Assembly: GCA_000004695.1 (NCBI GenBank)
Contig: CM000155.2
Location: forward strand, 2,784,001-2,848,000
Source: Dictyostelium discoideum
Lineage: Eukaryota
DNA length: 64,000 nt
Reading direction: 5' to 3'
Every line of letters begins with the position of its first letter. The first letter of the stretch is position 1. Positions 11,992 to 56,463 of this stretch are shown here, piece after piece. A program made the translations under genes and the position numbers. Below the pieces are notes generated by a model, which saw only the letters and a program-made list of their open reading frames with translations, did not search any database and was not told where the DNA came from.

Positions 11992-12727
11992 ATGAAATTA
12001 ATTTTCTCTTTAATTTTAGTTATCTTCACTTTATTTGTTTCAGCAAATGCTAATGTTGATTCACAAATTGATAGACTCGCTGAATTTGGCGAATCAATGA
12101 ATATCACTTTATCACAATCAGTTTGTAATGCTGCTGCTGCTAAAGCAGAACATTACGCAACTTGTGGTTGTAAGTTTTTTTTTTTATTTTTTCTAAACAC
12201 TTTTTTTATTTTATTATTTTTTACTAATTTTTTCTTTTTTTTTTAAAAAAAAAAAAAAAATAGGTCCATACGTTTGGGGTGTAAGAATTTAAACATATTA
12301 ATATTTTGGAATTTTTTTTTTTTAAAAAAAAATAATTAAAAAAGAAAACTAATTAAAAAACTTTTATTTTTAGGGTACAAGCTGTGGTTGTGGTGGTTCA
12401 GGTGGTATGGATTGCAGTGGTATCGTTTATACCTCATTTAGGTTAGTATTATTATTGAAAACAAAAAAAAAATATCATTTTTATTCTTTTAAATAAAAAA
12501 AAAAAAAAAATCTAACTTGATTTCATCACTATCAAAATATTTAAATTGGATAAAATAATATAGAGAAGCAGGTTGGACTGGTATTACCCGTACTACTACA
12601 ACTCAATACAAACAAGGTACCGCATGTAGTGGTTGTAGCGGTAGTAATACTTCAGGTTGTAAAGCTGGTGATTTATTATTCTACTGTTTCGGTTGTTCAG
12701 GTGGTGTCCCAGATCATGTCGTAAGTA

Positions 12728-12761
<34 letters not shown>

Positions 12762-12907
12762 TCCATAATATTAATATTATTTGTATTATTTTTTAGATCA
12801 TGGCAATTGGTGGTAACAGAGCTGTTCAATGCCCAGAACCAGGTCAAGATTGTTCTGTTATTGATATTTATTCTGAAAACTATATGTTATGTCGTTCAAT
12901 GTGTTAG
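11992..12907 (+). CDS. Secreted NlpC/P60-family cysteine peptidase-like protein, 5 exons including a 17-nt micro-exon, 176 aa
   Basis: Exons are 11992..12169, 12264..12280 (GTCCATACGTTTGGGGT), 12374..12441, 12564..12720 and 12797..12907. The spliced protein has a signal peptide (MKLIFSLILVIFTLFVSANA), then ...ATCGCPYVWGGTSCGCGGSGGMDCSGIVYTSFREAGWTGITR...GDLLFYCFGCSGGVPDHVIMAIGGNRAVQCPEPGQDCSVIDIYSENYMLCRSMC. The YVWGG...DCSG...H...H pattern is the NlpC/P60 catalytic signature. Only the micro-exon restores the frame (531 nt total). Confidence 0.7.
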
Positions 12908-13120
12908 AAATAAACTGTTTCTTTCGATTTGATATTCATAATTTAACATTTTCTTTTCTTTTCTTTTTTTTTTTTTTCTTTTTTCTTTTATAAATTTTTA
13001 TTTTCTTTTTTTTAACAATTAATTCAACATGTAATAATAAATAAATTTTAAATTGGAAGAGAAGATATTATCTTTAGTAAATTGGGATTGGTTCAAAATT
13101 TTTAAAAAGATAGTTGGAAA

Positions 13121-52862: not shown

Positions 52863-52944
52863 GTAAGCTTGCCCGAGCTGGTCTAAGGGGTTGCATTAAG
52901 GCTGCAATATCATTGATACAAGGGTTCGAATCCCTTAGCTTACA
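52863..52944 (+). tRNA. tRNA-Leu (anticodon AAG), long variable arm
   Basis: 82 nt. Acceptor gtaagct/agcttac. D arm tgcccgagctggtctaagggg. Anticodon stem ttgca/tgcaa with loop ttAAGgc. Variable stem-loop atcattgat. T arm aagggttcgaatccctt. Discriminator A. Confidence 0.85.
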
Positions 52945-54286: not shown

Positions 54287-54336
<50 letters not shown>

Positions 54337-54353
<17 letters not shown>

Positions 54354-54836
54354 TTATAGAAAGTACTGAGTGAATTATTGTATTTTTTGAGATGTTTAGG
54401 AAGTTCTATTGCGTGAAGAGGTGAGTTCCATTGTCTGCTAAATTGTAATAGCTTTAGCGAGATTAGTGAGTCTAATTTATTTTGTTCTTCTGGCCGTTGC
54501 TTTGATTTGATTCTTAATGTTTTGTTTATAACCGCTTGTGTCCTGTCCCATGCAGCTCTTTGTGTTTTAATTAGTTCACGTATGACTTGTTGTCTGTGAA
54601 TTATTATTTCTTTTTCATCGTGAATGAGTTTATTTCTTTTGTGCCAGATTTTATCGAATATAATAGCTATTAAATTGGCTACTAGTGCAATTTGTAGATG
54701 GTTTAAAATCTTCACATTCCAGGTGTGAGTGGTGTGTCCACACTTAGTTAGGGTGTAGTTGAAGATTTCTTGTGTGTTTTTGATGTGGGCTTTGCAGTTG
54801 AAGAATATATGTTCTGAGGTCTCATCTTCCCCACAA
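54337..54836 (-). mobile_element. 3'-terminal fragment of a TRE-type (tRNA-gene-targeted, non-LTR/LINE-like) retroelement, copy 1, 5'-truncated
   Basis: About 95% identical to 55315-55815. It encodes the same C-terminal ORF2 tail (121-aa ORF 54350..54715) and ends in poly(A), seen as poly-T 54290-54350 on the plus strand. The adjacent 54100-54300 is low quality. Confidence 0.6.
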
Positions 54837-55256: not shown

Positions 55257-55261
<5 letters not shown>

Positions 55262-55316
<55 letters not shown>

Positions 55317-56062
55317 TTATAGAAAGTACTGAGTGAATTATTGTATTTTTTGAGATGTTTAGGAAGTTCTATTGCGTGAAGAGGTGAGTTCCATTGTCTG
55401 CTAAATTGTAATAGCTTTAGCGAGATTAGTGAGTCTAATTTATTTTGTTCTTCTGGCCGTTGCTTTGATTTGATTCTTAATGTTTTGTTTATAACCGCTT
55501 GTGTCCTGTCCCAAGCAGCTCTTTGTGTTTTAATTAGTTCACGTATGACTTGTTGTCTGTGAATTATTATTTCTTTTTCATCGTGAATGAGTTTATTTCT
55601 TTTGTACCAGATTTTTTCGAATATAATAGCTATTAAATTGGCTACTAGTGCAATTTGTAGATGGTTTAAAATCTTCACATTCCAGGTGTGAGTGGTGTGT
55701 CCACACTTAGTTAGGGTGTAGTTGAAGATTTCTTGTGTGTTTTTGATGTGGGCTTTGCAGTTGAAGAATATATGTTCTGAAGTCTCATCTTCCCCACACT
55801 GTTGGCATGGCATGTTGTATATTTTTGGTAGTGCTTTCAGTGTGTATCTCCATAATAGATCTCTACCTTTCATGTTTATTATTTTTTTGATTTCTTTAAA
55901 TGGAAGGTGTTTGCTATTAATTTTGGTCATTATTTCTTTTTGGCCAGGAGTTGGTATGAATTTGTTGTGTTCAGGAGATTGAGTTGTCATCATATCCTCG
56001 TATATTTTTTTTAATTTTGGGAGGTGTTCGTAGTGTGTTTGTTTATTTTGTGGAGTTTTTAA
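55262..56062 (-). mobile_element. 3'-terminal fragment of a TRE-type non-LTR retroelement, copy 2 (ORF2 C-terminus with Cys-rich CCHC-like motif, 3' UTR, poly(A))
   Basis: The minus-strand ORF stays open from about 56062 down to 55313 (...KTPQNKQTHYEHLPKLKKIYEDMMTTQSPEH...CQQCGEDETSEHIFFNCKAH...). It is followed by a 3' UTR ending in ctcagtactttctataaata, then a poly(A) of more than 50 nt (plus-strand T run 55262-55314). Its 5' end lies about 140 bp upstream of tRNA-Met(+) in head-to-head orientation, as expected for TRE5-class elements. Confidence 0.65.
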
Positions 56063-56201: not shown

Positions 56202-56274
56202 GTCAGGTTGGCTCAGTTGGTAGAGCGTAGGTCTCATAATCCTAAGGTCCAGAGTTCGATCCTCTGACTTGACA
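56202..56274 (+). tRNA. tRNA-Met (anticodon CAT), elongator type
   Basis: 73 nt. Acceptor gtcaggt/acttgac (one G-U pair). D arm ggctcagttggtagagc. Anticodon stem taggt/tccta with a U31-U39 mismatch as in metazoan elongator Met. Loop ctCATaa. T arm cagagttcgatcctctg. Discriminator A. A T5 run at 56276-56280 follows. Confidence 0.85.
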
Positions 56275-56275
56275 C

Positions 56276-56391: not shown

Positions 56392-56462
56392 GCCGTGATA
56401 GTATAGTGGTAGTACATCAGATTGTGGCTCTGTTGACCCTGGTTCGATTCCAGGTCGCGGCA
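56392..56462 (+). tRNA. tRNA-His (anticodon GTG)
   Basis: 71 nt. Acceptor gccgtga/tcgcggc. D arm gtat/agtggta/gtac. Anticodon loop ttGTGgc. T arm cctggttcgattccagg. Discriminator A. Nearly collinear with metazoan tRNA-His. G-1 is not encoded, as expected in eukaryotes. A T6 run at 56464-56469 follows. Confidence 0.85.
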
Positions 56463-56463
56463 C

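Follow-up and report, generated by a model that had tools for sequence, protein, structure and literature searches.

A window of 64,000 nucleotides (nt) of Dictyostelium discoideum DNA (assembly GCA_000004695.1, contig CM000155.2, positions 2,784,001 to 2,848,000) carries, at 11992-12907 on the plus strand, a gene for a protein of the NlpC/P60 family, interrupted by four introns and featuring a micro-exon of 17 nt. All coordinates given below are positions in this window. The coding sequence (CDS) is made up by five exons (178+17+68+157+111), adds up to 531 nt, and specifies a product of 176 amino acids (aa) followed by a TAG stop. The exon coordinates and the 531-nt sum had been given in an earlier note on this DNA, and are correct on recomputation. 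The locus is an intact, real, single-copy D. discoideum NlpC/P60 gene; a tblastn search with the 176-aa protein returned this locus alone, and no paralog was detected elsewhere in the window. The components of the gene are the following.

11992-12169, + strand: exon 1, 178 nt; ATG start in the context AAAAAAAATG; the last base is the first of the Cys60 codon
11992-12051, + strand: part of exon 1 encoding the N-terminus, aa 1-20 (MKLIFSLILVIFTLFVSANA); the rest of exon 1 includes an NIT sequon at N37 and a helix before the catalytic domain
12170-12263, + strand: intron 1, 94 nt, GTAAGT..ATAG, 8.5 % GC, phase 1
12264-12280, + strand: exon 2, the micro-exon, 17 nt (GTCCATACGTTTGGGGT); supplies (C)PYVWG within the invariant CGCPYVWGG block
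12281-12373, + strand: intron 2, 93 nt, GTAAGA..TTAG, 9.7 % GC, phase 0
12374-12441, + strand: exon 3, 68 nt; encodes GTSCGCGGSGGMDCSGIVYTSF(R); catalytic Cys79 codon TGC at 12413-12415
12442-12563, + strand: intron 3, 122 nt, GTTAGT..ATAG, phase 2; the same intron is found in D. firmibasis
12564-12720, + strand: exon 4, 157 nt; catalytic His139 codon CAT at 12715-12717
12721-12796, + strand: intron 4, 76 nt, GTAAGT..TTAG, phase 0
12797-12907, + strand: exon 5, 111 nt including TAG; Gln151 codon CAA at 12827-12829; C-terminal Cys-rich strands
12909-12914, + strand: AATAAA hexamer, 2 nt past the stop codon, read from the sequence; probable polyadenylation signal

The four introns are all of the GT..AG type, with the acceptor AG placed after an A/T-rich tract, are 76-122 nt long, and have a guanine plus cytosine (GC) content of 8-13 %, vs. 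32-53 % in the exons. Such short, extremely AT-rich introns, as the GC content of the window (16-34 % in 2-kb bins), are Dictyostelium-like. Four introns in 531 nt of CDS are dense for D. discoideum. The neighbours, both on the minus strand, are a gene for a WD40 protein upstream and one for a Yme1-like AAA/M41 protease downstream; the D. firmibasis locus is syntenic, with the same two neighbours. Bacterial contamination was rejected on account of the spliceosomal introns, the AT-rich flanks and the synteny with D. firmibasis.

The reconstructed protein is identical, residue for residue, to XP_629164.1/EAL60750.1 ("NLP/P60 domain-containing protein", D. discoideum AX4; exact look-up), and clusters with 176-aa orthologs of D. 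firmibasis, D. citrinum, D. dimigraforme and other D. discoideum isolates. The DNA of the window is thus from AX4 or from a strain nearly identical to it. Since identity extends over 176 aa, the public gene model already contains the micro-exon, and features the same exon structure with no difference. The expectation that the micro-exon would be missed by annotation based on open reading frames (ORFs) is thus contradicted by the AX4 model. Since the gene, its name and its precise exon structure were public beforehand, the finding, while correct, is not new. As a discovery it carries little weight, the gene being annotated and lateral transfer of NlpC/P60 genes into bacterivorous eukaryotes being an established theme; novelty is further reduced because a dictyostelid homolog, EGG24385 of Cavenderia fasciculata, features in an earlier published phylogeny of NlpC/P60 proteins from eukaryotes (PMC5586350).

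The micro-exon and the encoded protein

The micro-exon has a GC content of 53 %, and is flanked by the two introns of 8.5 % and 9.7 %. It consists of the second and third bases of the Cys60 codon followed by the codons for P-Y-V-W-G, in the context ATAG/GTCC...GGGT/GTAAGA (slashes mark the exon ends). The earlier note had assigned to it the whole (C)PYVWGG block; this is right for (C)PYVWG, while the second Gly is supplied by exon 3. By our own estimate from the base composition of the introns, PYVWG is expected by chance ~1e-8 times in the 204-nt interval. When the micro-exon is skipped the frame shifts, and premature stop codons appear on translation, as had been claimed. The further statement that the frame can be maintained only with the micro-exon was overstated. 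An enumeration of single-intron GT-AG alternatives yielded eight which keep the frame open, most of them by using cryptic AGs within exon 3, and all eight lose PYVWGG. Within this block, Y62 and G65 do not vary among the 76 homologs aligned, and P61 and G66 hardly vary.

In the alignment of the D. discoideum and D. firmibasis loci the micro-exon is identical at 17/17 positions, and the adjoining ATAG and GTAAG are 100 % identical; both splice sites noticed earlier are thus kept in the second species. The flanking introns have diverged by substitutions as well as by insertions and deletions. The two CDSs differ by 37.5 synonymous and 5.5 non-synonymous changes, corresponding to 0.42 synonymous (dS) and 0.0135 non-synonymous (dN) substitutions per site. 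The dN/dS ratio of 0.03 indicates that the CDS is under strong purifying selection, as is the case for a functional gene. In eight Dictyostelium assemblies the product is always 176 aa long. On these comparative grounds, and with independent support from the identical AX4 protein, the 17-nt micro-exon is judged to be real. Dictyostelium introns are short (76-122 nt here), and each is presumably recognised singly, by intron definition, which would be the reason why an exon of 17 nt is tolerated.

Residues 59-164 match the Pfam family NLPC_P60 (PF00877, MEROPS C40) with 46.8 bits vs. a gathering score of 23 (E 3.2e-12). Membership in Amidase_5, a family of phage peptidoglycan hydrolases, was rejected (13.1 bits vs. 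a threshold of 21), the two families belonging to a related clan only. A sequence search of the PDB returned 23 matches at E<=1, all NlpC/P60-type hydrolases except the two weakest. The best solved relative by sequence is the NlpC/p60 domain of SagA (6b8c, E 5e-12), followed by Bacillus, LytE, Spr/MepS, RipA and Trichomonas enzymes. An AlphaFold model was built from the alignment of 76 eukaryotic and bacterial homologs (mean predicted local distance difference test, pLDDT, 91.4; predicted template modelling score, pTM, 0.82) and compared with the PDB by Foldseek. The matches listed, 50/50, are NlpC/P60 hydrolases or assemblies containing one; the probability is 1.00 for 3h41, 7cfl, 6b8c, RipA, LytE and MepS, and the fold matched is papain-like alpha+beta. 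The earlier assignment of the protein to NlpC/P60 is borne out by both score and fold.

D78, C79, S80, G81 and H139 are invariant in the 76-homolog alignment, C79 lying within MDCSG. In the model a predicted helix (79-89) begins at C79, and a predicted strand (139-145) at H139. Gln151 aligns with the His of the '..IHAP..' stretch of 6b8c, which we take to be the third catalytic residue of SagA. This third active-site position is occupied by Gln in 8/8 proteins from the D. discoideum complex; most other dictyostelid orthologs carry Glu there, and one environmental relative carries Asp. Gln151 is polar, and a place as third active-site residue is plausible.

The likeness to Gram-positive DL-endopeptidases is strong in the fold (6b8c, template modelling score 0.83, target-normalised; root-mean-square deviation 2.6 A), and PYVWGG, DCSG and the catalytic His of SagA, LytE (8i2d) and the Bacillus cereus enzyme (3h41) align with the D. 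discoideum protein. The bacterial enzymes differ in having neither the 14 additional cysteines nor the signal and glycosylation features of the eukaryotic protein described below, and usually carry extra wall-binding domains.

The N-terminus is hydrophobic, ends in A-N-A, and is signal-peptide-like, in agreement with the earlier description of a signal-peptide-bearing protein; both readings are made from the sequence, and cleavage is predicted after ANA (A-x-A site). A hydrophobic N-terminal stretch is common to dictyostelid orthologs, and an N-x-T sequon just before the domain is kept in most of them. The mature protein has 15 cysteines, the catalytic one and 14 more, most of which are kept across the clade. 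The extra cysteines are missing from the bacterial relatives examined (e.g. P0047, P0068), which points to a disulfide-stabilised extracellular or lysosomal enzyme.

Relatives, probable bacterial descent and introns

Orthologs reside in all dictyostelid groups. Three copies are found in D. purpureum (DICPUDRAFT_28130/148543/25810), two in P. violaceum (CYY_010361/009690), and others in T. lacteum (DLAC_01431), C. fasciculata (EGG24385), A. subglobosum and H. album. Over the full length of the query these orthologs show 48-63 % identity, and they feature the same Cys pattern, signal-like N-terminus and sequon. Profile bit scores are 205-237 for dictyostelids, 91-140 for environmental eukaryotes and at most 81 for bacteria. 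No named eukaryote outside Dictyostelia was found in the best 120 of 1422 profile matches, in which the other relatives are bacterial or unnamed metagenome proteins. The best named bacterial relatives are Actinomycetota (Thermobifida, Streptomonospora, Nocardiopsis, Pseudonocardiaceae).

A neighbour-joining (NJ) tree was calculated from 120 domains (102 usable columns, capped distances, 300 bootstraps). Monophyly of the Cys-rich eukaryotic clade is recovered in 259/300 bootstraps, that of dictyostelids alone in only 59/300. The environmental relatives sharing the CGCPYVWGG...DCSG Cys signature come from soil metagenome and metatranscriptome contigs (L010-L024) of ~1-3 kb, with a GC content of 31-65 %; one contig ends in poly(A) (L017), and one carries an unspliced GT..AG intron (L011/P0010). 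Signature, intron and poly(A) together indicate that the clade extends beyond dictyostelids to other eukaryotes, and its reach into uncultured soil eukaryotes of very different GC content is of some interest. One environmental relative (P0012) is fused to a WSC domain.

Derivation of the gene from a bacterial NlpC/P60 gene by horizontal transfer is well supported, because the eukaryotic clade is monophyletic in most bootstraps and its other named relatives are bacterial. Comparison of sequences further indicates that the transfer is ancient and predates the dictyostelid radiation, since orthologs occur in all dictyostelid groups and in uncultured eukaryotes. Of the horizontal acquisition proposed earlier, the bacterial ancestry holds; the event is not specific to D. 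discoideum.

Intron positions were obtained by mapping annotated proteins onto their own genomes, and are given as residue.phase in D. discoideum coordinates.

D. discoideum: 59.1, 65.0, 87.2, 140.0
D. firmibasis: 59.1, 65.0, 87.2, 140.0 and, in addition, 80.1
D. purpureum 28130: 79.1, 154.2
D. purpureum 148543: 79.1
P. violaceum: 137.1 (both genes), 156.0 (one gene)
C. fasciculata: 56.0, 139.0
T. lacteum: 59.2, 62.1
H. album: 69.1
A. subglobosum: none

Dictyostelid orthologs elsewhere have 0-2 introns, vs. four in D. discoideum and five in D. firmibasis. The micro-exon is missing in D. purpureum, where CPYVWGG is contiguous within exon 1. Because positions differ among species and the A. subglobosum CDS is intronless, the introns must have been gained after the transfer, with lineage-specific gain, loss or shift, a result in line with the earlier view of a bacterial-type gene that acquired four introns. 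The production of micro-exons by lineage-specific gain, loss and small shifts, in a gene which originally must have lacked introns, makes the family a tidy, mildly interesting case for the study of intron origin.

Positions fall in four zones, seldom coincide exactly, and are 1-3 nt apart between species. The fifth D. firmibasis intron (149 nt; region L005 3406-3576, micro-exon included) lies right after the catalytic Cys/Ser codons and delimits a second micro-exon, of 22 nt (GTATTGTTTATACCTCATTTAG); this intron is precisely absent from D. discoideum (cf. 12374-12441 in the window), and in all three D. purpureum paralogs an intron sits 3 nt upstream of that site. In T. lacteum the annotated DLAC_01431 model needs, in the region L008 3165-3343, a micro-exon of 8 nt (TCCTTATG), located between ..AAATAG and GTAAAT.., which encodes CPY(V) of CGCPYVWGG; the intron upstream is 1 nt off D. 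discoideum intron 1. The T. lacteum protein (L008, P0009) has in addition a Ser/Gly-rich insert of ~95 aa in the loop after Q105-G106. The D. purpureum model DICPUDRAFT_25810 (P0007) treats 413 nt of GTTCA-type repeats in the same loop (L009 3324-3736) as an 'intron' and removes them; this partial model, which in addition requires an exon of 8 nt close to the catalytic His, looks doubtful.

Function and alternative readings

Family membership, intact motifs, secretory features and precedent in other eukaryotes make the protein most likely a secreted or endolysosomal endopeptidase acting on the peptidoglycan stem peptides of bacteria. A bacterial cell-wall hydrolase gene would have entered the ancestor of dictyostelids, or possibly an earlier amoebozoan or other soil eukaryote. 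There it would have acquired a signal peptide, a conserved sequon for N-glycosylation, ~14 more cysteines and spliceosomal introns; in the D. discoideum lineage two of the introns ended up with just 17 nt of coding sequence between them. Cys79 (DCSG), His139 and Gln151 would form a papain-like active site, and the enzyme would cleave stem peptides (as a gamma-D-Glu-diamino-acid endopeptidase) of bacteria eaten or met. The role of such a Cys-rich enzyme in a model phagocyte living on bacteria is of mild interest.

Precedents are known. NlpC/P60 enzymes of Trichomonas have been acquired laterally and degrade peptidoglycan (PMC6299479, PMC10461829), CwhA of Aspergillus fumigatus is a secreted endopeptidase which lyses Gram-positive bacteria (PMC12332128), and lateral acquisition has been proposed for the expanded NlpC/P60 genes of Trepomonas (PMC4967989). 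In T. vaginalis (NlpC_A1/A2/B3; 6bim, 6biq, 8ev4), in A. fumigatus and in the house dust mite (LytFM; PMC5586350), as in dictyostelids, a bacterial P60 has been domesticated by a bacteria-associated eukaryote, and the fold is the same. Yet these enzymes are only 20-28 % identical to the dictyostelid protein and are not among its nearest relatives, for which reasons the acquisitions were probably independent. Trichomonas enzymes carry bacterial SH3 domains, whereas the dictyostelid enzyme is a single Cys-rich domain.

It is very probable that the gene encodes a small, disulfide-rich NlpC/P60 peptidase of bacterial descent, which may be secreted or lysosomal and would be likely to cut bacterial peptidoglycan. 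Several points weigh against this. An exact search of metagenome and metatranscriptome contigs for the spliced exon 1-exon 2-exon 3 junction gave 0 matches, and support for the splicing pattern comes from comparison between species and from the curated public model. The bacterial sister group, and hence the donor lineage, is not resolved in the NJ tree, because only 102 columns were usable and because of the method itself. Gln151 of the D. discoideum complex departs both from the Glu of most other dictyostelids and from the His aligned in SagA. The public record XP_629164.1 has no experimental function attached, and queries on accession, family name and bacteriolytic or horizontal transfer literature turned up neither a publication in which the D. 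discoideum protein is characterised nor data on expression or activity of the gene. One could suppose, given the eight alternative single-intron splices that leave the frame open, that the micro-exon is unused, and the locus a decaying pseudogene or the source of a frameshifted or shortened product. This is extremely improbable, as each alternative deletes the near-invariant PYVWGG block, the exon and both splice sites are perfectly kept while the flanking introns diverge, and the 176-aa product recurs in eight Dictyostelium assemblies; a pseudogene was rejected because of the dN/dS value found with D. firmibasis. Vertical inheritance of an ancestral eukaryotic paralog, lost in most lineages, would account for a Cys-rich clade that reaches beyond dictyostelids to environmental eukaryotes of varied GC content, with their poly(A) tail and unspliced intron. 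We nonetheless regard it as very unlikely, since the named relatives other than dictyostelids in the best 120 of 1422 matches are all bacteria, with a steep fall in bit score from dictyostelids to bacteria; since the low identity to solved Trichomonas proteins is in keeping with separate acquisitions; and since introns do not keep their positions and are altogether missing from one ortholog.

A further reading concerns the role: the enzyme would be real but would not kill or digest prey, and might trim muropeptides for the sensing of bacteria, or act on a substrate other than peptidoglycan. SagA-type enzymes generate signalling muropeptides, and SagA is the closest solved relative; lipids are the substrates of the LRAT/H-Rev107 branch of the superfamily, and in the D. 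discoideum complex Gln has replaced Glu as third catalytic residue. However, the domain scores as a classical P60 and not as LRAT type, the substrate-groove motifs PYVWGG and DCSG are intact, and the eukaryotic acquisitions characterised so far degrade peptidoglycan (PMC6299479, PMC12332128), so that a non-digestive role seems rather unlikely, although less so than the two readings above.

Two broader readings are put forward tentatively, with somewhat less than even confidence. The 'CGCPYVWGGTSCGCGGSGGMDCSG' proteins might form an uncharacterised, eukaryote-specific, disulfide-locked NlpC/P60 branch, widespread in soil amoebae and uncultured eukaryotes and perhaps serving as a phagosomal or secreted peptidoglycan-cutting effector, and the family might be an unusually clear natural experiment in post-transfer intron gain and boundary shift, with micro-exons of 8, 17 and 22 nt around the most conserved motifs.

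Other features of the window

An uninterrupted ORF of 3608 aa spans 21934-32760 on the minus strand, with bacterial-type alpha-2-macroglobulin domains in its C-terminal third. The domains identified are A2M_BRD (aa 2264-2404), Ras/Roc (aa 2519-2633), A2M (aa 2842-2928) and bMG10 (aa 3472-3595), the Ras/Roc GTPase domain being embedded among the A2M domains, an unusual architecture. The ORF is possibly another bacterial-derived module within the window.

Four transfer RNA genes are found at 596-668, 52863-52944, 56202-56275 and 56392-56463, and are listed as Ile-AAT, Leu-AAG, Met-CAT and His-GTG. Poly-T runs of 60-67 nt, located at 54289-54355 and 55259-55318, lie within the 54-56 kb bin, and probably account for the strong negative AT skew of this bin.

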